Positions 2,289-24,927 of a stretch of DNA of 32,000 nucleotides are shown here, piece after piece. Position 1 is the stretch's first letter, and each line of letters begins with the position of its first letter. Origin of the DNA: Patescibacteria group bacterium. GTDB lineage: Bacteria; Patescibacteriota; Gracilibacteria; BD1-5; UBA2023. The DNA is taken from assembly GCA_049293675.1 (NCBI GenBank), contig JBAQBR010000001.1:174915-206914 (forward strand), in the 5' to 3' direction. Under the pieces are notes generated by a model. That model had not been told where the DNA came from and made no database searches. It worked only from the letters and a program-made list of their open reading frames with translations. The translations under genes and the position numbers were made by a program.

Positions 2289-2387
2289 AGTGAGTCAGAG
2301 TATATCAATGCAGGACAAATAGGCAAGCAATAATCATAAACTCATCATTGGTTATTATCCAATAATACCCCGTAAGGTATATACTTT

Positions 2388-2432
2388 TTGTCACTATTTT
2401 GTCACTATTTTGTCACTATTTTGGTGTAATAT
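2388..2432 (+). promoter_or_regulatory. Promoter A: three perfect 11-bp direct repeats TTGTCACTATT (plus a degenerate fourth) abutting a -10 TAATAT
   Basis: TTGTCAC cores start at 2388, 2399 and 2410; a degenerate TTGGTGT starts at 2421. The -10 hexamer TAATAT is at 2427-2432, 17 nt after the start of the last perfect core. This geometry is identical to promoters B-D. It lies 31 nt upstream of the ATG at 2463. Confidence 0.7.
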
Positions 2433-2462
2433 TGAATAGTATTAACACTAACTATTCATACC

Positions 2463-3554
2463 ATGGAAATACATGACTTGGCAACCTCTCTCTGAGAAAA
2501 TACGACAAAGAAGGTCAATGAAGACTTAGATCGTCATCTTTTCTCATTTGAAGAATGAGATAATTTCTGAGAAATACTTGCAAGTAATCCAAGTGCATCG
2601 TTTAGCTTGAAGTCAATTAATGTAGCAATACATAATATACTGTGATCAAGATTATGTGTATGAGAATTTTTTAATGATAGATACTGAACTATATACTCAA
2701 CATGAGAATTTTCCTTAGCAAGAGAACTACTACAGATTGAGAGATTACAGGTAAAAGAATTACTCAATAAGGAGTGAAGACTCTCAGAGGGTTTTGTGGA
2801 AGCATCTATTGATAGAATTCAAAAAAAAGTCCAATCACTTCATATAGAAGAGTTACAAAAAAGATATAATCGAATGTTATATTCTCCAGACTGAATAGAT
2901 ACTCTTGGGGATGGAAAGGACTGTTTTTGAGATATATGAAGATTTAGACTACCAACACCTATAGAAAAATGTATAGGAACCCCATGAAGCAAAGAAACAA
3001 TAATATGACCAGGAAGAAGTGCACAACTAGTGATATCAACAGAAAAATGAACCAACAACATTGCATGAGTATGTATGACTTACAAAACAAACAACCTAGA
3101 AGAAGCTTTTAATAATGAGCTAAGTGCACACTACGCTTGAAGGTATTGATACATAAAAAGAGCCATGGAGGAAATATACGATGACATGAATGAGAAGTGA
3201 ATTATGGTCTTTCCTGTTATCTGAATGCTCCCAAAATACGCATCTCTCCGTAGTATGATGAGGATGATGCGAGATTGGGCAAAGGAACTTATAAGTGATG
3301 ATTTTGCAATGATTCCAGGAATTGCAGAGATGGATATGACCAACAATTTTTTCGATCTCTGTTCTCGACAGTTATCAGTCACACCTCTAAAACTCCTCGA
3401 CCATAGAGGAGACCCAATATCAGCTATAAATAAAAGACTTGACTATTGTAGTAGTGTGGTTACCTTTAGGGCAATAGCTGCAATTGAAAAGGCAAGACAA
3501 TGAATCAGTTCGGTTATTCCTAGAAAATCTTTTAACTTACGAGAAAATGAATAA
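2463..3554 (+). CDS. hypothetical protein, translationally coupled to the downstream histidine kinase
   Basis: 363 codons with no TAA/TAG in an AT-rich region (checked codon by codon) and about 20 in-frame TGAs. The stop TAA at 3552-3554 overlaps the kinase ATG at 3547 (ATGAATAA). No signal peptide, TM segment or recognisable motif. Confidence 0.75.
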
Positions 3555-5658
3555 CTATATATTCTTTTACTTTATTGCAACAGCACTCTCAGTATATGGA
3601 TGAATCTGAGTATATAGAAAGTATACCAACCTATGAGGGTTATTCTTTTTACTATACACAATACTTGCATCACTATGGTTAATTTTTTATTTTTTATTTT
3701 TTTCAGATTATCCATTTACAGAAGACCGAAGACTGCTTTTTTCCAGGATAGACTATTGACTCTCGCCTATTACTCTGATATGTTTTGTATTATTTATATA
3801 TTTTTTCTGAAAAAAAGAGGCATGAGATAAAATCTGAATGCAGATAAAAGAAAACGCCATACTTATGGGAACTCTGTTAATCTCATTTGGTATAATATTT
3901 TATGTATCTGTTTTTACGGATAACATCATCTACCAGATAGCGCTCGATAAAACCTGAGTATATAGAGAAATATTCTGAGAACTAACATGGCTCAGCACAT
4001 CAGTATATATTAGCTTCATTCCTATATCCTTTTTGTTCTTTCTTAAAAAACAAAGAGACTTAAGCTATATCGACAAGATAAGAATACTAAAAATAATATG
4101 GGTGAAGCTTATATTTCTTACTTTACTCATAGTACTTCAAGTTATCCTTCCTCTATATGGAATATGGATACTTGAACATGAGATTATTATATTATTTGTC
4201 ATTTCTGTTCTTGTAATAGCAAGCATTATTCAGAGATATTACTTTTCACCAATTTGATATGAGCTTAGTAGGCTTGCATTGATAATAATAGCACTTGTTA
4301 TTATATCATTTATAATATGGGGAGTTCTTCACAACTACGCTATACCCCCCGAAATACTCACAAATAACTTCTCATCATTTGTATTTATTCTTGCATATGC
4401 AAGTCTTGTGTTATGAGTATACCACATAATTGCGGCAATCTTTGATAGATATATCCTCTCAAAGACTCAAATGCATATAGTAGCATGAAAAATGAAAACG
4501 ATAAAAAGAAATATGGTGCAATTTTTGGATATCAAGTTGTTGAATAGATACCTTAGAACAGAACTAAGTAAAATATTTCAAACCAAAGAGATTGAGCTCA
4601 TTAGAATCACTGATTCAAAACAAATTGAATTCTTGTCGGATTCATTTTGAAGAATAAAAAGAAAAGTACTGATTGATGATTTCGTTTTTATGGAGGAAAA
4701 TATGATTCAGTTTGATTTTAAGAAAATAAACTCAAAACTCATTGATCCCTTTCTCTGTATACCCATCTATTACAACTCTAAGGAAATAAAGTGACTCCTC
4801 GTATTAGGAAAAAAGAAGTTCTGAAACTTCTACACTGTCTCTGAAATAGCCTTCGTAGAGGATCTAGCCCACATACTCTCTATACATATGCAGTATATAG
4901 AAGTATATAACCAACTCGAAGACATCTCTCGCAATCTCGACCGAAAAGTTGATGAGAAAACTATTGAATATAATACCCTCATCTCACGACAAAAAGAATT
5001 CATAGCGACTCTCTCTCATGAGATCAAAGCTCCTCTCACCAGTGCCCTGCTCCAGATAGATAATCTCTCTGTAGATATAGAAGAAAAAAGATTATCAGAA
5101 ACAGGTGTTCAAGAAGAAGTGGTATCTATCTGAGAAAATCTTGTTCATACAAAAACTCTACTCTCCCAGTTATTCACAACGGAGTATCTCGAGAAAAGTC
5201 AGGCAGTACTCTATCCCGAAAGGATAAATATCGTGGAATTTATTACCTCACAGTACAATATCCAGAAAAAAGTAAATCTTCATTGTATTTATACTGAAGT
5301 AATTCCAGAAAATAATATCTACGTAGGTCTTGATAAGACACAGTTTACACAAGTACTCACCAATCTCTTCTGAAATGCTGCAAAGTTTGCTGATTCCAAA
5401 AACCCTAAAATCCACTTAGAGATAGAGCAGGATGAGTCAGGTATACTAATTGGTATCGAAGACAACTGACCTGGACTCAACGGTATCGAACTAGATGAGA
5501 TATTCGAGAAGTATACAATAGGCAAGAATTCTATAGGTCTCGGAATAGGACTCTATCTCTGTAAGAGGATTATTGAGCTTCACGGTGGAACAATTGCTGC
5601 AAAAAAATGAAAAAAGCTGTCCTGAATAAGAATAGAGATACACATTCCAATCGAGTAA
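3547..5658 (+). CDS. sensor histidine kinase, about 9 TM segments, cytoplasmic GAF-like linker, HisKA and HATPase_c
   Basis: 703 aa. H-box EFIATLSHEIKAPLTS, N-box QVLTNLF-G-NAAKFA, G1 box IEDN-G-PGL (TGA 5467-5469 on the invariant Gly), G2 box GLGIGLYLCKRIIELHGGTI. The N-terminal 300 aa are highly hydrophobic. In frame with track ORFs 4033..4257 and 4888..5133. Confidence 0.9.
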
Positions 5659-5775
5659 ACTCAACTTCCTGAGCAAAGATACTGTACAAAGATAAAAAAA
5701 TGTGAAAAATATTGTAAAAAAACTTTTGTATTTTTTATACCAAATCAAGGATTCCTATATCTGGAAAGGATTTCT

Positions 5776-5820
5776 TTGTTTTAAATTTGTAACAAATTTG
5801 TCACTATTATGTGGTATACT
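5776..5820 (+). promoter_or_regulatory. Promoter B: 11-bp-phased repeats TTGTTTT / TTGTAAC / TTGTCAC plus extended -10 TGgTATACT
   Basis: Cores start at 5776, 5787 and 5798. The -10 TATACT is at 5815-5820, 17 nt after the last core start. It lies 31 nt upstream of the ATG at 5851. Confidence 0.7.
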
Positions 5821-5850
5821 GTAGTCAATAACATGTAAACACAACTTAAT

Positions 5851-6153
5851 ATGTCTCCTCTTGCGCTCGCCCCATCTTCTGAGTCATCCTCACTTTCACA
5901 TACATCTCTACGCAACTCACTCCCTGTATGAGCTGTACGCGTAATTAGCGCCACAGCGGAAGCGATTAATCAGAGTATGTATGAAACACCTAGGGCAGTT
6001 CGTACTAATGATGTTGAAGCTTTTAAGATAAAGCCTTGAACTCGATATGTGGACTGACTGGAACTTGTGGCCCAGAGGATTATCGCTGATATGCAACTTG
6101 GAAAATCTGTGCCATTGCTTCAGGAACTTGCGCGTAGTCATCTTCCAAACTAA
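5851..6153 (+). CDS. hypothetical small protein (100 aa)
   Basis: ATG 5851, double stop TAATAA at 6151. Three in-frame TGAs and no TAA/TAG. It is bracketed by promoter B and a strong terminator. The opposite-strand track ORF (5917..6141) has a non-protein-like composition. Confidence 0.65.
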
Positions 6154-6182
6154 TAAAAAAACAGCTTTTTTTTAAGAAATCA

Positions 6183-6213
6183 ATGGTTTCCTTTACTGGA
6201 AGCCATTTTTTAT
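6183..6213 (+). terminator. rho-independent terminator (copy 1 of a duplicated terminator-promoter cassette)
   Basis: Stem atggtttcc (6183-6191) / ggaagccat (6198-6206) with one G-U pair, loop tttact, then a T6 run. Confidence 0.75.
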
Positions 6214-6221
6214 TATGTACT

Positions 6222-6255
6222 CTGTAACAGATTTGTCACTATTTTTATATAGTAT
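6222..6255 (+). promoter_or_regulatory. Promoter C: cTGTAAC / TTGTCAC repeats plus -10 TAGTAT
   Basis: Cores start at 6222 and 6233. The -10 TAGTAT is at 6250-6255, 17 nt after the last core start. It lies 36 nt upstream of the ATG at 6291. Confidence 0.7.
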
Positions 6256-6290
6256 ATATCTTATAGATAGATCATTAATGATTTAATTTT

Positions 6291-7799
6291 ATGCGGTCAA
6301 CAGCAGAATATATCCAATATGTGGCACCAAGTCCACAAAAAACAAGTGATCTGAGAGAAAGGTCTGCTCTAGAGGAAATAAAGATATATAGATGACGCGC
6401 TACCACAACACTAGATGTATCTAATATATCTACCAATTCATGAGTAGGCACTGGCCAACGAGCTGCACTATTCGAAGATAATGTTATTGATAATACAGAG
6501 GAGGTAAAATGAGCTTGAGCTATCCTAGCTCGGAGAACCTTCGATGAACTCATGTGAAGATTATGAGTTGCATGACGACATATACGAAAATGAAGAGCAG
6601 CAAATGTGGAAATATTTCCAGAACACCTAGAGAGTGAATACATCGTCCCTACAATCATGCAGGAGACAACAAAGGAGGAAAAATATGCAAAAAACCTAAC
6701 TCTCGAGGTAGTATCAGAGAAGTCTACAATCACAAGTATAGTTGACCCAACGAGTGAGAGAAATATAGAGTCAATACACAAGTTATGAGTAGGATTTGGT
6801 ATAGATCCTTTTTATGTGAATAAGGATTGAGAAATTGTTCCAAATAATATGTTCAAGTTCATGTGTGGAACACTCAAAATAATGCCAAGATTTATCAAGA
6901 TTGAACATGCAATATACGATACAATAATACGGAGTAATGATGCCATATACTGAAAGTTTCGAAAATACTTAGATTATATCAGTAAGCAATGAGCAGAGAT
7001 AATTATATATAACTGAATAAAGCAAAATATATTAATAAAGCAGGATACTCCTCAAAGGACAGAGGATATATTAGGGTTAATTGATAGTGCTTACGTTACC
7101 GAAAAGCCATTCATCAAAACAAATGGAGAAATTGCTGCAAATGAGTTATCAATACGATTCAATTGAGAAATAGACAAGGCTACATGAATCCAGCAAATAA
7201 AAGATGCTTGATATACTTTTATGCTCCTTGAAAAAATACTCAAAAAAGCAATTGAACGAGCAGAAGCATGAAAAAAGACATCATTAAGTGTATATATCAA
7301 AGATGTTAATAATCTACAATTAATGCCCGTAGTCTGGAAGGCTATCAAGCATCTTCCAACTACAACAAGAAACCGAATTTGTATATGGATTAATGGGGAT
7401 AACTACGGCGAATTAGACAGCGTATTTTTCAACCAATTAGAGCTCTTGAAGAAGAGCTGACTACACGTCGGTATCGATAATCTAGGACATATAGAGAGTA
7501 CGGCATTGTTAGGTAAAAAAATACTGGATTGATGTATGGATCCTAATAAGGAAATATCTATCAATATGGTAAGGATACACAGAAGAGTTACAGAAGGTAT
7601 TATTGCGTGAAAACTCAGTGATAATGACTTAAGAAATCTGGATAATAGTCTGGCTATGTTAAAGAATCAGTCATGAGAAAAAATTACAGTTGTATTTGGC
7701 TGAATCAAGGGAACGATGGATATTGATAAGATTGCATTGCGCATGGTGGCGTTGGGAAAATCGAAAAAAGAAGTATTGTATCAATGAGAAAAAATATAG
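6291..7799 (+). CDS. hypothetical protein (502 aa) with a C-terminal degenerate EAL-like domain
   Basis: 503 codons checked individually: about 23 TGAs, no TAA/TAG, TAG stop at 7797-7799. The C-terminal 230 aa can be laid on the EAL-domain pattern: KPFIKTNGEIAANELSIRF (QPI..G.i.g.EaL.R), SLSVYIKDV (vNls), RICIWING (lEitE), GLHVGIDNLG (iAlDDFG), KITVVFGGIKG (vvAEGVE), LYQG (QGy). Most catalytic acidic residues are replaced. Confidence 0.75.
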
Positions 7800-8051
7800 T
7801 AAGTATGCGTACGGTATTAGTTCAATTGAAATAATTTATAATACTAAGTATGCTCCTTCATGATAAATAAATAATTTCACTAGAATACTATCATTGCGAA
7901 AAGGTGAAAAGAACTACCATAAATCAAGATAAAAATAATTGTTTCTATTATGACGGATATAGATTATAAATACATATAGTATACAATTAATCAATTTTTT
8001 TAATTCCATAGAAAATCTATTAAAAACTTTTATATATTCTTACGCATACGT

Positions 8052-8082
8052 ATGCTTTCCTTTACTGGAAGCCATTTTTTAT
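8052..8082 (+). terminator. rho-independent terminator (copy 2 of the duplicated cassette)
   Basis: Stem atgctttcc (8052-8060) / ggaagccat (8067-8075) with one mismatch and one G-U pair. Same tttact loop and T6 run as copy 1. Confidence 0.65.
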
Positions 8083-8090
8083 TATGTATT

Positions 8091-8124
8091 TTGTAACAGA
8101 TTTGTCACTAATCAATTGTATAAT
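8091..8124 (+). promoter_or_regulatory. Promoter D: TTGTAAC / TTGTCAC repeats plus -10 TATAAT
   Basis: Cores start at 8091 and 8102. The -10 TATAAT is at 8119-8124, 17 nt after the last core start. It lies 27 nt upstream of the ATG at 8151. Confidence 0.7.
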
Positions 8125-8150
8125 GTATTTATTAGTTCTTAATATATTAT

Positions 8151-8408
8151 ATGCAATCATTACAAATACATATAAAACCAACGGAAGACACATTATACAA
8201 AAGATTGATCCAACATAGCTTAGGATGAGTTGATTATTACCCGGAGATACGAGCACGTTGATTGGTGGAGGAAACTCTAAAAAAAATAGCCTCAATAGAA
8301 AGACTTCAAGAACAACATGAAGCAGAGGATAATAAAGAACTTTTAGACCTTCTAAAAAGATTGATGCCAGAAAAACTTAAACACTTCTGAAAAGAAAAGG
8401 ATCTATAA
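8151..8408 (+). CDS. hypothetical small protein (85 aa, predicted helical, charged)
   Basis: ATG 8151, TAA stop at 8406-8408, 3 in-frame TGAs. It lies directly downstream of promoter D and upstream of the response-regulator gene. A competing antisense track ORF (8062..8295) would run through the promoter. Confidence 0.55.
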
Positions 8409-8429
8409 TAAAGAGTGTCCTATGTAAAT

Positions 8430-8458
8430 TTGCAAATTTTCTCAATTTATTGTATTAT
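8430..8458 (+). promoter_or_regulatory. sigma70-like promoter for the response-regulator gene
   Basis: TTGCAA (8430-8435), 17-nt spacer, TATTAT (8453-8458), with TG immediately upstream of the hexamer. Confidence 0.45.
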
Positions 8459-8491
8459 CTATATATCTTCCCTTACCGTTGCTAGGAAATC

Positions 8492-9241
8492 ATGAACATC
8501 CTCCTTATCGAAGACAACAATCAGTTTGCAGAACACCTCTCCAACACACTCTTAAAAAATACATATGTTAATAGAGTAGAGAGGATTTCATCGTATGCAG
8601 AATTCGAAGAACTTGTAGGACATATGAGATCTTTTGACATCGTACTCGTGGATCTCGTACTTGAGTGAGATACTATACGCAACCCATCTGGATTCAAGAT
8701 TATCCAGAGTCTCCGTAAGAACTGAAGTTCAGTACCAATTATTGTTATCAGTTCAAGTGATACTATCAACGATATCGAATATTCTTTTTCTCTTGGGGCC
8801 ACAGACTACATGGGCAAGGATATCCGATATAGAGAACTAGAGATAAGGTTATTCCACTGGTACCGTGAATATTGCATGGGCAGCATAAGCAAAAAACGAT
8901 GAGCCCTCTCATACCATGGACTTGAGTATTCACAATCAAAAAACGAATACCTATATGCATGAAAGGTTATCAACTTCACAAAAACAGCAAAATATCTACT
9001 TTCATTGTTCTTCAATGAGCGAGAAAAACTCCTCACGGATGAGTATATCATAGAGAAAGTATGGTGATACAACGAAGAACTCGATATGAAAAATACTCTG
9101 CGCGTCAATATCCGTAGACTCCGTGGAACACTCGAAGAGAGTGGCATCTCTCACTGGCTTCAGAATGACTGGTGAGAAGGATATATTTTCAAGTATAGGA
9201 CTCTAGAAGAGATGGAGGGAGGAGAGAAAAAAGAGGATTAA
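8492..9241 (+). CDS. OmpR/PhoB-family response regulator (receiver plus winged-helix DNA-binding domain)
   Basis: 249 aa. Receiver domain MNILLIEDN...DIVLVDLVLE. Winged helix EKVW-G-YNEE..NTLRVNIRRLRGTLEE...DW-G-EGYIFK, with TGAs at conserved Gly positions (e.g. 9173-9175). TAA stop at 9239-9241. Confidence 0.9.
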
Positions 9242-12200
9242 TTCCTCTTTCTCTTTTTTGTAAGCATATTTTGCAATGAACCATACCATCGACGGATGAA
9301 TGATGGTTCTGGATTCATATAGAGTTCGTAGTAGACAGACTTGAGTACAAAGAGTGATATGAACGTTGTTGCAACAAGTCCGAATATGATAGTGAATCCC
9401 ATACCAGACCAGAATCTATCCTTGAGAGCAATTGGCAATATACCAAAAACTGTGGTCAGGTTCGTGAGGATCATCGGCTCCAGACGACTCGCACCAGCCT
9501 CCACAAGAAGATCTATCTGATCCATACCCTTCGCTCGATTCTTGTTGATGGCATCGATGAGGATAATTCCATGATTGACTCATATACCTGTAAACGCGAT
9601 GAATCATATACCGAAAGGCATCGAGAACTGATTGTCAGTGAGGATAAGTCCTATCATAACGAATGGCAGAGACATGATGACTGAGTACAGTATCACCGCT
9701 GATTGTGAATAACTATTGAACTGGAGCGTTAGGATGGCAAATATCGTCATACACGCAATGAAGAACGAGACTCCAACGGCCACGAGAAGTTCCTTATTTT
9801 CTTCGTTTTCTCATCCAACAGCGTAAGTTATACCCGCAGGAAAACTATATTCCTGAGCGTACGTGAGGAATGCATTCTGTGTGGATATGCTATCTACTCC
9901 AACTTCAAGGTCAGCATCAACAGTTATCTGTATTTTCCCATCCGATCTCTTGATGGAGGCAATAGCATTCTCTGGGCGTACATCGAGAAAATCCCCGACA
10001 CGATATGTCCTTCATGCGAATGCAAATGTAATACCCTGTATATCTTCTGGAGATACATCATCTTGGAATTTTTCCAGTTTTAGTACCACATCCCTATCAT
10101 TTCCGCTATCTTCTATTGTTCCAACTTTTATGCCATTGATATTCTGTGTTATCGTACCATATATGAGTGAAAATGGTATAGAAAGATCTGATAATATATC
10201 CTTTCTGAGGGTAAATATAAACTGTCCAGGAGTATCCTGTGATGAGCTACCGATATTCTTGGTACCAGGTATCTCTCTAAGTCCAGACTGAAAATCCTTG
10301 GATATCTTGATAAGTTCTGAGAGTCGCTCCGGACTATCTGCGATGAGATTGAGTCCAACTGCCTTGCCACCTGGTGGACCATTGGCAAGTGCCTCACTCG
10401 TTACCTTGAGTCACTTGGACTCGAGAGGAGCAAGCTTATGGAGAACCTCTTTTTCAAAGTCATAGACACTCATGAGTCAGAGCTCTTTGCGAGTATCCTT
10501 GAGTATGAGTTCTGTACTGATGGACGTTCTATTCTTACTGGTACTGATGGATATAGTTTTTATCTCCTTGTATCCAGCAAAAAGTGGCGGAATATCTCAG
10601 ACCATCTCTACCATCTTCTCTGTTGTTATACCAGGAGTTCCCTCGATAGCGAAGTTCACGATATTGTTATCATCCGAAGGAAAAAGTTCAAAACCAACAC
10701 GAGGCGCCAAAAGAGCTGATCAGACAAAAAAGAATACTACAGGAATCAGGATTGACTGTCGTCTGAGTGTCTTGTTCATGAGGAATTTCTTGAGTACTCG
10801 CTTGTACGAGTTGATCATCGCCTCTATAAATCTCATTCGAAAACTTCTCTCATTATCTGCGATCTTTGTTTTTCATTCACGTTCTAACTCGAGGAGTTCA
10901 CGCTCATCCTTGTCAGCATATTCGAGTATCTCCTCGTTTTCACGATACGTATTCTGCCTACGTGTAAAAAGAAGATACAGTGCACTATTCACGGTAAGTG
11001 CCAGTATGAGACCGAATGTCAGAACACCAAAAATCGTAATAGGGATATACGCGAGGAACTTGCCGAGGATACCAGGAAGTGTCATCATCGGAACAAATAC
11101 TACAATCGTTGTAGCCACTCCAGATATGATTGGTACCGCATACTCCTTGATAGCAAGCAATATAGCACTTTTTGGATTGTACCCAATCTTGATCTTGGAA
11201 CTCGCGGCCTGTACAATCACGATAATCGTATCGATAGCGATACCGAACGAGAGGATAAGAGAAAAATTCGTAAGGAAATTCAAACTATAACCCATCGCAT
11301 AGAGGAGGATAAAAGTCGCAAGGAAAGCAAGAGGAAGTGTCACACTCGCAAAAACTGCTTCCTTGAATCATACAAAGAGGTATATGACAATAAATACCAA
11401 TACAAGGGTAGTTGTCGCCTCGCGAGCAAGTGCCTTATAGTCTTCGCGAATGGTCTCGGCAAGGTCAGAACCATAGATAAATCCAAGTCCCGAAAATTCA
11501 GGTGTTTTAAATATCTCTTCAATATTTTCTTTTGCTGCATCACTTGCTGCGAAGATACTATATCAGTCTGTTTTGTTGATGGTAAGTCAGATATATTCTT
11601 TTCCACTACCACTGTCACCAACTATTACGAGATCCTGTGTGGTACTCGCATAATCACGCTCTATACGAGATATCTCTCAGAGAGTGATAGTTCATCAGTT
11701 AGGGATAGATAGTGGTGTTGATAGGAATTCGAAACTAGAAGTATTTTTTCAGGAGATACGGTAGTCATACTGCTTGTCTCCGAGAGAAAAGTTGCCAATA
11801 GGAAGGTCGAGATTGAGTGACTTGATAGTACTCGCAATAGTGTTGAGGTCTAAGCCGAGTGCATCTATCTTCTCTTTTTCAAGTATTATCTCAACATCAT
11901 AAGCATCGACACCTCCTGCCCCACCCCCAATAGGAGAAGAATCAGAACTATATCAGATATCCACACTCTCTATTCCAGGTGTTCACTTGAGGTGTTCTTG
12001 TATCTGTTTTGCCTTGTCGAGGAGGTAGGAACGACTCTCTGAATTATCCTCATCGTAGATAAGTATGGAGAAGGCACGGCTCGTATCTGTCTCTATCTCT
12101 TGAATATTGGGGTCAAGGGCATCATCAGGAAGAGATACTCGTGCGACATTACTTCGAACTTCATCGAGAACATCCTGTACAACTGCATCAGTCTTGAGAG

Positions 12201-12516
12201 TGATGACAACACTTGAGACGCCAAGAGATGATGTTGATTCTATCTTATCAATTCATTTGATATCTTTTACTTCCTTGTATATCTTGTCAGTGATAAGGCT
12301 ATCGATATCCTGCGGATTCGTTCCTGGATAGACTGTCGCTATAGATACTATACCGAGCTTGATAGACGGAGAGGATTCTTTTGGTATATTCATCGTTGCA
12401 ACATACCCCACAACTATGAGTAGGAGTACGAGAAGGTATGATATACGATGATTTTTTATCCAAAATCAGAAGAATCATGCCTCAAATTTTTCGATGAGTT
12501 CTGTTTGACGCGACAT
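9238..12516 (-). CDS. RND-family efflux transporter permease (AcrB/ACR_tran-like)
   Basis: 1092 aa, ATG 12516-12514, TAA stop 9240-9238. All 1093 triplets were scanned: about 21 TGAs, no TAA/TAG. It joins track fragments 9238..9525 and 10873..11343. The N-terminus MSRQTELIEKFEA-G-FF..NIPKESSPSIKLGIVSIATVYPGTNPQDID is typical of the family. Confidence 0.9.
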
Positions 12517-12531
12517 AGTTGATAGTTAGGT

Positions 12532-14358
12532 TTATTCTGGCTGAACCGTGAGTGTATGTTTTGTTGTATCGTAGTTTGTTGTATCAGTGAGTATCAACTG
12601 CATAGACGGATCGATGGCATCAATTGTCTCTACAAATCCTGAACGGATTGATAAGATTTTTATATTTCTTGTTGCGATAGTCTCACCAGAGAGATATCGT
12701 ATCTCTCACTCATTCTCAGCTATGATACGTACAGCTTCAAGTGGTATATTCACGAGTCCAGCCCCATCGATAGATTCCTTTGGATAGAAAATAATGGTGG
12801 CAGTCTTACCAATGGCTGAAGTTCCATCTGTAACTGACATACGCAGTGTTGAGAGGAGATTCTTCCCTGCAACAGAAGAGAGTGCTATAATAGTTCACTT
12901 ATATTGCTTATCCTCTACTGATATCTCAACTGTCTCACCAACGGAGAGAGTACGAGCAAGATTGGATTCGATATCGAGGACGATCTCTGGCTCGTTGCTC
13001 GTGAACTCTGCTATAGGTGCACCTGTAGCTACCGATTGTCCGACGCTTGTAAGAACCTTCGATATAGTACCACTTACTGGAGCACGCACAAGAAGATTAT
13101 CAGCATTGCGACGAGCAAGTTCGAGAGATATTTCTGCTGACTTCCTAGAACCATCGAGTTGTGTGAGTGTTGCGTTTCTGAGAGATTTTGCATTTTCATA
13201 GCTATTCTTCGCTTGTTCGAGGGTGAGTTCTGCATTTTTTGCTCGTTCCTGGAGGTCTATCTTGGTGCTTTCATATGTAGTCTTGAGATCCATATCGCTC
13301 GCAAGAAGAGTTACTTCATCTGGAGTAAGTGCACGATCGAGTGTTGCAATAGCAAGCTTGGTTGCTGTTTCTGTTTTTTTATAATTCTTAAAAAATGAAA
13401 CCGTCTGTCACTTCCATGCATTGTATCCTGATTCGCTTCATCCAACTTGACTCCTATATCCATTCCAAGCAAGCATCCAGGCATCTTGTTGAACTTGTGG
13501 TAGTCCACCACCGATAACATTGTTCTGGAGCATATAGAGCATCGTATCGAGGTAGTCCCTGAGTTGTGTATATCCCTGAGCAATCTGTTCGATATCTGCT
13601 TCTGGATCTTCTCGATTGAGTTCGAGTCATTTTTCGATTCGAGAACGTAATTCTCCACGAAAATTATATACAGCATTCCATTTATTTTCAGCATCAACCT
13701 TTACATTGCCTATTCTTGCACCGAGGTATGATTCCCAACTATCGTTGGTGTACTCGAAAACTGTAGTGATACCCAGTATCTTGTCTCATTCGTGGAGATA
13801 TTGTGTCATGGACTTCTCAAGTTCTGTTATATAGCTCCTGAAACTTTCATTATAAGCATCAAGGGTTTTTTTGTTTCCACTTACTGTGAGGTCATACTGA
13901 AGCGCATTGCGATCCAAAAGTGTCTTGTATGCTTGATCTGCACGTTCGTATGCGATACGAGCATTATCAACTGCACTATCGAGGTTGATACTTGTTGTCT
14001 CTCTACTTGCATTCTGCATCTTGAGAGCGTTCTCAGCCTGGGCAAGCTGAAGATCATAGTTCGTGAGAGTATCTTTGAGGCGTGCGATCACTGCTCCAGC
14101 CTTTACTTGCGAACCTTCCTTCACTTCGATCTTTGAGACTTCACCAACTCACTTGGCACCCAGAGTGAGTGTTGAGCGTGCAGTGATACGTCCAGTTTTC
14201 TCTACTTCTTCTTGGATACCATCGCTATCGAGCGAATACACATCGACAAAAAATGGGACCTTCTCCGTAGAAACTGTAACAACTGCCTCTTCTCAGAGAG
14301 AACAACTCGAAAGCACCAAAGAAACAATAAAAATGAATCCAAAAATAAGATTTTTCAT
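12532..14358 (-). CDS. efflux periplasmic adaptor (HlyD/membrane-fusion family) lipoprotein, unusually long (608 aa)
   Basis: ATG 14358-14356, TAA stop 12534-12532. Lipobox FIFIVSLVLSSC. Lipoyl-like segment GEVSKIEVKEGSQVKAGAVIARL and its partner LLVRAPVSGTISKVLTSVGQSVATGAPIAEF, separated by a long helical insert. Frame verified through 13294-13785. Confidence 0.85.
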
Positions 14359-21204: not shown

Positions 21205-21292
21205 GGAGAGGTCGCATAGTGGCCTAGTGCACACCCTTGGAAAGGGTGCGTATCGCAAGATACCGGGAGTTCGAATCTCCCTCTCTCCGCCA
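21205..21292 (+). tRNA. tRNA-Ser (anticodon GGA), 88 nt, CCA encoded
   Basis: Folded by hand. Acceptor GGAGAGG/TCTCTCC. D-arm with GG. Anticodon stem CACCC/GGGTG with loop TT-GGA-AA. Long variable arm GTATC-GCAA-GATAC (class II). T-arm GGGAG-TTCGAAT-CTCCC. Discriminator G plus CCA. Confidence 0.92.
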
Positions 21293-24187: not shown

Positions 24188-24240
24188 AGCATTTTTTTAT
24201 GATATACGGGAAGTGTATATTTTCTTATCCTTTTTGCAAC

Positions 24241-24927
24241 ATGAAATCATCTATCCTTTTCGTCGCTTTCGGTTGTATTCTCAGTTTTGGACTCACCTCA
24301 ACTCTCTCAGCAGCAAGTGGTGACGCCGTTGAGTCTACTACCACAGAATCGGTTGTCCAAGTTGAGAATCCTCTTCTCATCGACTCTATAGATACTACAG
24401 ATGACATGCATATCAATGTTGTATTCAACCAGGATGTTATCCGCGAATCTGTACGTGTACGCATATCTAAGCAGAGTGACGAGTCCAATGTTCGTATTGA
24501 CTCATTCACAGGCGGGGAAGATGGTCGCTCTATCCAGGTTATACTCTCTGACTCTCTTGAAGCTAATACATCATACAAGATGACTATCATCAGTGCTATC
24601 TCTGAAGATGGAGTTATCATCAAGGATGGTGCTGACGGAATCAAGGAATTCAGTACTCCAGAAGATCTCAAAAAATACGTCGAAGAAACTATCGAGCTCA
24701 GCGCACCTGCCAATCCGAATGCAGTAATCGTAGAAGCATCTGGATCTCAGACAGGAGAACAGACTGGTGGTACAGTTCTCCCAAAACCAACTGAGCCAAC
24801 CGGAGAAAATCCACTCCCATCTACGACAGCAGAGGAACTCCCACTCACAGGAGTCAACTCAACAATATTTCTTGCTGTTGCTGGCGTACTTGCTCTTATA
24901 TTTGTATTACGTAGACGCCAAGCATAA
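24241..24927 (+). CDS. LPXTG-anchored surface protein with Ig-like (SbsA/Big_5-type) repeat region
   Basis: Signal peptide MKSSILFVAFGCILSFGLTSTLSAASG (the track's upstream ATG at 24199 adds 14 atypical residues). C-terminal sorting signal EELPLTG plus hydrophobic NSTIFLAVAGVLALIFVL plus RRRQA. No TGA inside. Confidence 0.85.
   Translation: MKSSILFVAFGCILSFGLTSTLSAASGDAVESTTTESVVQVENPLLIDSIDTTDDMHINVVFNQDVIRESVRVRISKQSDESNVRIDSFTGGEDGRSIQVILSDSLEANTSYKMTIISAISEDGVIIKDGADGIKEFSTPEDLKKYVEETIELSAPANPNAVIVEASGSQTGEQTGGTVLPKPTEPTGENPLPSTTAEELPLTGVNSTIFLAVAGVLALIFVLRRRQA

Follow-up and report, generated by a model that had tools for sequence, protein, structure and literature searches.

Here, we analyse 32,000 nucleotides of contig JBAQBR010000001.1 from a Patescibacteria group bacterium (the window, to which positions refer unless a locus is named), with an island of genes around a two-component system (TCS), i.e. 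a sensor histidine kinase (HK) and a response regulator (RR). We show that this island carries an operator-like element made of two or three TTTGT(C/A)AC units in 11-bp phase, the proximal unit ending 10 nt before a -10 hexamer, in place of a -35 element. In the window the element precedes the operon formed by g363 and HK, two small open reading frames (ORFs), one of which leads into the RR gene, and the gene of a predicted EAL-fold protein. In relatives it precedes the same core units and, outside the island, genes for secreted proteases, an Rhs-like protein and small proteins. Sequence comparisons make it probable that this is where a clade-specific two-component regulon has its chromosomal core, in a Gracilibacterium predicted to use genetic code 25, and that RR acts through the boxes much as PhoB does.

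Box promoters in the window

The initial annotation of this DNA had placed four intergenic sites with 11-bp-phased cores at the positions given here, and all four are present in the sequence:

2388..2416, + strand: site A, three perfect 11-bp units TTGTCACTATT with cores at 2388, 2399 and 2410; predicted RR operator (read from the sequence, like the next four rows)
2427..2432, + strand: -10 hexamer TAATAT of promoter A, exactly 10 nt past the proximal core
5776..5820, + strand: site B, TTGTTTT (degenerate) at 5776, TTGTAAC at 5787 and TTGTCAC at 5798, with the -10 TATACT at 5815-5820
6222..6255, + strand: site C, CTGTAAC at 6222 and TTGTCAC at 6233, with the -10 TAGTAT at 6250-6255
8091..8124, + strand: site D, TTGTAAC at 8091 and TTGTCAC at 8102, with the -10 TATAAT at 8119-8124

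The cores had been described as TTGT(C/A)AC throughout, which holds for most of them and fails for the distal cores of B (TTGTTTT) and C (CTGTAAC). As proposed, exactly 10 nt separate the proximal TTGTCAC from the -10 hexamer in four out of four sites, and the ATG, expected 27-36 nt past the hexamer, was found at a close 26-35 nt. No usable -35 accompanies these hexamers: the sequence at the canonical -35 position is non-consensus, and the proximal and distal boxes lie 11 and 22 nt from the -10, so that neither can serve as one. All four sites show the geometry of pho-box-type promoters, i.e. at least two 7-bp direct repeats with an 11-bp period, 10 bp to the -10 and no functional -35.

This arrangement is not expected by chance. 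Allowing two mismatches, TTGTMAC-N4-TTGTCAC has 6 matches in the 32-kb window against 0.49 expected, and none of 100 shuffles reaches 6. With at most one mismatch there are 5 matches, all on the + strand and intergenic, and they correspond to sites A-D. That the pair of motifs is confined to these sites, with about 0.5 matches expected in the window, was thus confirmed. The units concerned are the following:

2463..3554, + strand: g363, a cytoplasmic protein of unknown function (ORF with TGA as sense)
3547..5658, + strand: HK, with nine transmembrane (TM)-like segments (aa 4-296), a cytoplasmic linker, a HisKA-like H-box and HATPase_c
5851..6153, + strand: g100, small ORF behind site B (TGA as sense)
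6291..7799, + strand: g502, predicted EAL-fold protein (ORF with TGA as sense)
8151..8408, + strand: g85, small ORF behind site D, immediately 5' of RR (TGA as sense)
8430..8458, + strand: RR's own sigma70-type promoter TTGCAA-N17-TATTAT, without boxes (promoter prediction; conserved in L001 and L134)
8492..9241, + strand: RR, OmpR/PhoB-family response regulator (receiver and winged-helix Trans_reg_C)
9230..9250, + strand: terminator-like hairpin at the convergent ends of the RR and RND genes (terminator prediction)

The 3' end of g363 overlaps the start of HK by 8 nt, HK and RR stand in separate units 2.8 kb apart, and no terminator is predicted between g85 and the RR gene. The autoregulation suggested initially is plausible, given that the g363-HK operon and the g85-RR unit both lie behind boxes, but RR may also be expressed from its predicted boxless promoter.

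Conservation of the boxes in related loci

Syntenic loci (L001, L002, L003, L134, L139, L141 and L142) were reached through relatives of g363 and of the HK sensor. The site-A array of three TTGTCACTATT units is 100% identical in L001, L002, L003, L134, L139 and L129, and its flanking bases diverge; L142 has TTGTCACTAAT units at this place. g363 is only 42-52% identical where site A is 100% conserved. In the orthologous A sites a TAnnnT hexamer lies exactly 10 nt downstream, though the bases in between differ. Equivalents of site B and cassettes of the B and D types are found 3' of HK in L001, L102, L134, L141, L142 and the genome of Candidatus Gracilibacteria HEM.3 (HEM.3). Site B is identical in the same-species contigs L139 and L140, and L001, L102 and L134 have an almost unchanged site D, down to the spacer and the -10. 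Since the boxes are conserved in seven related lineages, also where the neighbouring proteins diverge, we regard them as functional, as judged by this comparative evidence. The co-conservation of boxes and island genes in related genomes, put forward initially as a check, was borne out.

The geometry is equally regular. From 22 sites in 5 genomes we derived the consensus TTTGT(C/A)AC-N3-TTTGTCACTA-N7/8-(G)TATAnT, in which the spacers are uninformative. Among 30 box pairs in 137 kb of related DNA, 24 have TAnnnT exactly 10 nt downstream, 5 are the distal pairs of triple arrays and 1 is followed by TATAAA, i.e. the promoter geometry is kept in 24 of 25 proximal pairs and none of the 30 pairs lies outside a promoter context. 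A distant system in L135/L136 (HK 30-35% and RR 40% identical) has the promoter TGTTAC-N5-TGTAAC-N5-TGTAAC, 10 nt, TATAAC, 5' of an operon of accessory gene, HK and RR. The box core thus shifts in step with the divergent RR and HK of L135, and all lineages examined have boxes alongside this TCS.

Two further observations concern site A. HEM.3 (L042) has 2 units where the near-identical L002 has 3, which suggests slippage-type variation in operator copy number. The block CAATAATACCCC(G/A)TAAGGTATATAC, at 2360-2384 and immediately 5' of the site-A boxes, is as strongly conserved as the boxes (L002, L003, L134, L129, L139); it may be an additional protein site, or else resemble an UP element.

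Box promoters outside the island

We scanned 185,579 GTDB species genomes with the pattern TGTMAYNNNTTTGTCACTANNNNNNNNTANNNT, which every known site satisfies. It matched 47 stretches, 8 of which (with 9 sites) lie in a single genome, that of HEM.3. Other taxa have essentially one match per genome and the only recurrences are orthologous sites across related species. In HEM.3, 3 sites belong to the island (site A and two cassettes), 1 precedes an 82-aa ORF and 5 others lie elsewhere. The island had been described as self-contained, and this part of the initial annotation must be abandoned, since the box/-10 architecture also occurs in HEM.3 at no fewer than five promoters on four other contigs. 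The off-island targets include a Trypsin_2 protease with a signal peptide, a Peptidase_C39_2 protein with a signal peptide, a protein of more than 971 aa with Peptidase_S8, Laminin_G_3, DUF6531 and Rhs-like repeats, and an 85-aa Zn-ribbon protein. All HEM.3 sites face an ORF.

Two of these off-island targets recur in a third genome. In the JGI metagenomes, a single sample (Ga0209639) contributes five recoded contigs with six sites in total. Orthologues of the Zn-ribbon and the secreted-protein targets are among the genes concerned, and a conserved leader accompanies each. Four other metagenome matches (L056, L085, L084 and L105) have a recoding signal but no downstream ORF and stand in different contexts; we took them as chance matches.

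The leaders deserve separate mention. In HEM.3 (L043, ~4839-5000) and Ga0209639 (L055, ~338-495) the box promoter is followed by a conserved leader of ~60 nt (ACGCTGGAGCGCTCC...TTAGGACGnTTCGGCTTTTTTGTT, a hairpin and T-run) and by the 85-aa Zn-ribbon ORF at +158/+166; this leader could be a small RNA or an attenuator. A second conserved leader, of 83-89 nt (GGCTCCTCGGAnATA..TCTGAGTGnGTCAGGTGAAAAGCCTG...), lies between the box promoter and a secreted protein starting MNALKK (C39-like in HEM.3) at ~2127-2210 of L025 in HEM.3 and ~1068-1155 of L119. The conserved leaders of HEM.3 and Ga0209639 have no Rfam match.

The response regulator and the comparison with PhoB

RR matches PF00072 (56.2 bits) and PF00486 (51.8 bits), both over the cut-off, and thus has the receiver and C-terminal winged-helix Trans_reg_C of the OmpR/PhoB family. 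The initial annotation of RR as the sole DNA-binding protein of the island is supported. The closest relatives of RR in PDB are generic regulators of the OmpR family. In the structure of PhoB on DNA, the recognition-helix region holds the residues that read the TGTCA core, and direct repeats with an 11-bp period are the family-typical OmpR/PhoB site. RR is 28% identical to the effector domain of E. coli PhoB (its sequence checked against 1GXP and 3T72), and its recognition helix NTLRVNIRRLR aligns to RTVDVHIRRLR of PhoB, with T-x-x-V-x-IRRLR in common. Across genomes with identical boxes RR is 76-91% conserved.

The resemblance to the E. coli system extends to the DNA. Pho boxes are likewise 7-bp TGTCA-type direct repeats with a 4-bp A/T spacer and an 11-bp period that end 10 nt before the -10 and replace the -35, and the TCS genes are autoregulated in E. 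coli, as predicted here from the box promoters. The assignment of the boxes to this class, made in the initial annotation, gained support from our scan, which also retrieved sites in gammaproteobacteria. One is conserved in eight Rheinheimera loci (L007, L008, L017, L024, L026, L031, L038 and L041) as TGTCAT-N3-TTTGTCAC, 10 nt, TAAGCT, 5' of a 174-aa PAP2-like membrane protein; others lie in Shewanella (L028, L030) and Moritella (L012), 5' of secreted nuclease-like proteins of 766-942 aa. The PAP2-like and nuclease-like genes are plausible members of the Pho regulon, and these sites are probably genuine PhoB pho boxes. At this resolution, therefore, the island motif is indistinguishable from proteobacterial pho boxes.

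One might then conclude that the island is part of a true phosphate-starvation (Pho) regulon, with a divergent PhoB and genuine pho boxes. Besides the boxes and the PhoB-like helix, this would fit the top NCBIfam match of RR, which is a PhoB model. We nevertheless consider it highly improbable. RR falls far under the cut-offs of all NCBIfam equivalogs (92.7 vs 270 for NF053854, 74.1 vs 296.2 for TIGR02154 and 52.4 vs 471 for NF007546). The kinase, annotated initially as a non-PhoR protein with about nine TM segments, indeed has nine such segments, no PAS match and a score of 66.5 against the PhoR model, where the cut-off is 334. On these scores and this architecture we rejected orthology with PhoB. 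Among the window ORFs examined and the HEM.3 targets we saw neither pst or phoU nor phosphatase genes; instead, the targets are small ORFs and a predicted EAL-fold protein, joined in relatives by secreted proteases and an Rhs-like protein. Unlike in E. coli, the regulator and kinase genes lie in separate units, 2.8 kb apart, and the sensor is hypervariable, which is hard to square with conserved Pst/PhoU sensing.

Cassettes B, C and D

Sites B, C and D belong to a longer common module with a terminator-like hairpin and T-run directly 5' of the boxes. Cassettes C and D are 82% identical over 84 nt, and a degenerate copy of the hairpin precedes site B. The two predicted hairpins are:

6182..6207, + strand: terminator-like hairpin and T-run of cassette C, AATGGTTTCC-TTTACT-GGAAGCCATT TTTT (terminator prediction)
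8054..8072, + strand: terminator-like hairpin and T-run of cassette D (terminator prediction)

The sequence of the cassette-C hairpin is kept in cassette D of the window, in HEM.3, in L102 and in L134, and L001 has different hairpins at equivalent places. The same-species contig L139 ends within the cassette-C hairpin and T-run, just 5' of the boxes, as a repeated element is expected to break assembly. As a side observation, the hairpin ATGGTTTCC-loop-GGAAGCCAT and ~30 nt on its 5' side (AAAAAnCTTTTGTATTTTT) show conservation from one paralogous copy to another and across species, the copies being 6182-6207 and 8054-8072 in the window, L023 in HEM.3, L102, and ~12205-12240 and ~12600-12640 in L134.

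Such repetition raises the question of whether B, C and D are REP- or MITE-like repeats with no regulatory role or, more generally, whether the boxes are repressor sites or bound by another factor, with RR there by coincidence. The shared module of at least 84 nt, hairpin included, does recur between species, and RR is linked to the boxes by sequence comparison. Yet, the boxes with their exact 10-nt offset are also found at site A and at all off-island sites, where the hairpin is missing; all sites lie between genes and point towards an ORF, and the boxes accompany this TCS in all lineages examined, with a core that changes with the RR and HK of L135. Direct repeats with an 11-bp period are also what OmpR/PhoB-family regulators typically bind (PhoB-DNA, 1GXP and 3T72). 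We thus find these explanations very unlikely, and favour boxes that serve RR.

The genes behind the cassettes vary. ORFs at position B from different genomes have zero conserved columns in common, and no homologue of g100 was detected at the equivalent position of other genomes. A homologue of g85 exists in L001 (44% identity, E = 3e-20) and, by a weak C-terminal match, in L134; none was found in HEM.3 or L102. Neither g100 nor g85 has a family match in Pfam, NCBIfam, PHROGs or PADLOC or a TM segment predicted by hydropathy, and none of the small ORFs evidently encodes a signal-peptide-like or double-glycine precursor. L001, HEM.3 and L134 lack both g502 and cassette C, and by this distribution g502 with site C appears to have been added, in this lineage only, to an island whose core is conserved. 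The g502 stop is followed, in front of cassette D, by ~250 nt (7800-8050) of apparently non-coding AT-rich DNA, which may be a scar of the g502 insertion.

g502, a predicted EAL-fold protein

The regulated products had been described as all unknown. This remains so for g363, g100 and g85, which have no family match, but g502 can be assigned. Its only close relative is P0001 (95% identity), with which an exhaustive phmmer search retrieved 14 distant relatives of ~500 aa (best E = 7e-28). Neither g502 nor its proxy P0001 matches Pfam EAL (PF00563). Yet, 11 of 12 aligned members of the family match it in their C-terminal half (best E = 4.6e-17), and P0006, P0008 and P0013 exceed its gathering score. 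Searches of PDB with sequences gave no match for the C-terminal half of P0006, and a profile of the family matched in its N-terminal half only. It was the fold search that settled the question. The AlphaFold2 (AF2) model of P0001 has a pLDDT of 80-95 over residues 260-500, and the top 50 of 50 Foldseek matches in PDB are EAL domains (E down to 6e-12, target TM-scores 0.63-0.76); FimX and LapD, receptors without catalytic activity, are among them.

The model thus predicts that g502 is an EAL-fold protein, with degenerate catalytic motifs. We mapped its residues in the alignment A4 to the canonical motifs by eye, from established EAL signatures: E..R, the first D and Q are retained, and N->S, ExxE->WxxG, DD->DN, K->R and E->G are changed. 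Because these changes affect catalytic and metal-binding residues, enzymatic activity seems unlikely; g502 is possibly a c-di-GMP receptor. Its proxy matches only EAL structures and its family matches Pfam EAL, as is the case for the degenerate receptors FimX and LapD and the active phosphodiesterases RocR, YahA/PdeL and BifA. Unlike them, g502 itself does not match the Pfam model and has the residue changes listed above, no GGDEF partner domain and an additional, partial EAL-like module in the N-terminal half.

The nearest member of the family, P0006, adjoins an rRNA operon and has no boxes, which implies that the g502 family is not always tied to this TCS. In L135 a g502-family gene stands beside the distant HK-RR pair, split into ORFs of 250 and 280 aa that both match EAL, and the association with the TCS may thus be recurrent. 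Some side observations concern these loci. The complete 16S and partial 23S rRNA genes beside P0006 (L137, 1-2818, - strand) are usable for taxonomic placement. The split EAL ORFs of L135 (11968-13532, - strand) overlap, through a frameshift or a sequencing error. At 13533-13605, 5' of this split gene, a long palindrome CTTACAAATATTAATA-ATG-TATTAATATTTGTAAG followed by TATAGT is an operator of a different type.

A hypervariable block of g363 and the kinase sensor

HK matches HATPase_c with 63.8 bits (cut-off 26.4) and HisKA with 23.7 bits (E = 5e-5), just under the cut-off of 26.9; the H-box SHEIKAP is present, as in HisKA-class kinases. By hydropathy, the nine TM-like segments in residues 4-296 are joined by short loops. 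Relatives are few, 7 for the sensor region in the protein database and 4 for g363. g363 has no TM segments by hydropathy and no credible match in Pfam, NCBIfam, PHROGs, PADLOC, PDB sequence and profile searches or a permissive Pfam scan of a 6-member alignment. Structure prediction, fruitful for the g502 proxy, failed here: the AF2 model from 4 sequences had a pLDDT of 37 and was not used. A GNAT-like impression gained by eye had no computational support and was dropped.

Missed by the initial annotation, g363 and the kinase sensor form a sharply bounded hypervariable block:

2450..4850, + strand: hypervariable block of g363, the HK TM sensor and the linker, to about HK residue 435 (sliding identity to L134 and protein identities)

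Sliding nucleotide identity to L134 is ~82-88% in the flanks, ~50-60% in the block and 71-83% in the kinase core. It drops right after the site-A boxes (~2450) and recovers at ~4850 (HK residue ~435), just before HisKA. The two sequences are unalignable over 5750-8450 and more than 80% identical from RR onward. Protein identities to the window in L134, HEM.3 and L001, in this order, are:

DHFR: 79%, 74%, 54%
MFS: 92%, 79%, 68%
RND: 95%, 94%, no value
RR: 91%, 84%, 78%
g363: 42%, 71%, 77%
HK TM region: 47%, 76%, 73%
HK linker: 53%, 72%, 73%

The HK core is 84% identical to that of L134; M24 (93%) and FtsK (98%) were compared with L134 only. L134 is thus the closest genome by its flanks, yet it has the most divergent g363 and sensor. 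In the pairwise matrix, g363, the TM region and the linker co-vary, with the window, L001 and HEM.3 in one class (71-77%) and L134 apart (41-53%), whereas the relationships of the HK core and RR track the flanks and conflict with the block. L003, P0022 and P0024 represent further divergent classes. Such discordance between block and flanks requires allele exchange or ancient allele classes. g363 and the sensor would set signal specificity and evolve as one exchangeable block.

We take this pattern to resemble the agr hypervariable region, and it invites a refinement of the proposed regulon that we offer as tentative. g363 might make or process a diffusible signal sensed by the co-varying 9-TM sensor, in an autoinducing, quorum-sensing-like circuit with pherotype-like classes and control over exoproteins. 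The island would then be, though we hold this to be doubtful, a functional analogue of agr, LuxM/LuxN or CqsA/CqsS built on an OmpR-type regulator. Such a circuit would fit the co-variation, the boundaries at promoter A and before HisKA, the additional classes, the polytopic sensor with its short loops only, the translational coupling of g363 and HK behind a triple-box promoter predicted to be autoinduced, the secreted proteases and Rhs-like protein of the HEM.3 regulon, and the MFS and RND/HlyD exporter genes that flank the island in all genomes examined. Against it, g363 matches no recognisable enzyme family or fold, the small ORFs provide no evident precursor, a physical complex of g363 and the kinase would explain the co-variation equally well, and both the signal and its export are hypothetical.

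Known systems are similar in part. As in agr (agrBDCA) and the comCDE pherotype loci, the polytopic sensor half and an adjacent co-transcribed gene are hypervariable, the variable block lies between a conserved kinase core and the regulator and is discordant with the genome background (a likeness in evolutionary pattern only), the operon is autoinduced (by prediction in the island), and the regulon includes secreted proteases and a toxin-like protein (in HEM.3). The island differs in its OmpR-type rather than LytTR regulator, in an operator that is an 11-bp-phased TGTCAC repeat and not a LytTR site, and in that no peptide precursor was identified among its small ORFs. It has no AgrB or AgrD homologues either, as g363, g100 and g85 have no Pfam or NCBIfam match, and g363 is cytoplasmic with no recognised fold. 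With LuxM-LuxN and CqsA-CqsS of Vibrio it shares a potentially signal-producing gene directly 5' of, and co-expressed with, a multi-TM kinase lacking a large periplasmic domain. Yet, g363 resembles no known synthase, the kinase is not a hybrid and the output would be direct, through an OmpR-type RR.

Genetic code and chromosomal setting

Translated with table 11, the island fragments into short ORFs; with TGA read as a sense codon, long ORFs are recovered at the coordinates of the initial annotation. An in-frame TGA encodes the G1-box glycine (DN-G-PG) of the kinase, and in the g502 family the TGA-encoded residues are the EAL-family glycines of EG(I/V) and QG. The positions of these codons therefore indicate that the host reads UGA as Gly (code 25), and its only named relative, HEM.3, is labelled Candidatus Gracilibacteria. 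In some searches the code-25 proteins of the window were represented by the database proxies P0001 and P0002, which have W at TGA positions (called with code 4).

The island is a stable locus in an ordinary chromosome. Its neighbours in the window are DHFR, MFS, an AcrB-type RND, a HlyD-like MFP, M48 and M24 peptidases, FtsK, YchF and FtsW, and the order DHFR-MFS-island-RND-MFP-M48-M24-FtsK is common to the window, L134 and HEM.3. The idea of a mobile island was rejected on account of this synteny. Among side observations, the MFS gene, divergent from the island, has its own conserved sigma70-like promoter TTGCCT-16-TATACT with TG at 2299-2326 (- strand), ~60 bp from the boxes, and its true start is probably the ATG at 2288 (MTQKS...) rather than 2348. 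A tRNA gene at 21205-21289 (+ strand; Rfam, 48.8 bits) overlaps a spurious ORF, and 24199-24927 (+ strand) encodes an Ig-like protein with a signal peptide and an LPXTG cell-wall anchor motif. A literature search found no published description of this locus.

Discussion

How might such a regulon work? We propose that phosphorylated RR would bind the direct repeats head-to-tail and recruit RNA polymerase as PhoB does (class II, sigma region 4). This would provide positive feedback on the kinase operon and, through read-through from site D, on RR, whose basal level would be supplied by the boxless sigma70 promoter. B, C and D would act as insulated units of terminator hairpin, boxes and -10, with cargo that turns over between genomes, and a copy of cassette D would have come to drive g502, predicted to be catalytically inactive. 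The input would be set by g363, the 9-TM sensor and the linker as an exchangeable specificity block.

Several points weigh against this proposal. The link between RR and the boxes is one that we infer from their co-occurrence, from family-typical geometry and from helix similarity. The HEM.3 and metagenome sites were selected by a pattern that requires boxes and TAnnnT, and independent evidence thus comes only from their contexts and unconstrained positions. In the source genome, which is not among the GTDB representatives, the box scan covers the 32-kb window only. The cassette hairpin is conserved across species beyond the needs of a simple terminator, and some of the small ORFs may be non-coding.

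To our knowledge, gene regulation is almost unexplored in Gracilibacteria and their relatives in the candidate phyla radiation (CPR), most of which are uncultivated. The locus offers a complete, testable circuit, with a regulator, an operator consensus, a promoter geometry and a list of targets across genomes, and the box motif is a marker for finding further members of the regulon. It also provides a clear instance of a sensor replaced as a module, which points to signals specific to strains or species, and an example of how new genes, here one for a predicted EAL-fold protein, would be wired into a regulon by copying a terminator-plus-operator cassette. One might speculate, with little confidence at present, that this is a previously unrecognised system of cell-cell (or host-cue) signalling, in which pherotypes of g363 and sensor feed a conserved OmpR-type RR that autoinduces the locus and controls secreted proteases, Rhs-type toxins and an EAL-fold effector. 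If this were true, an agr-like regulon of exoproteins and attack would have been assembled from unrelated parts in an uncultivated, recoded and possibly epibiotic lineage.

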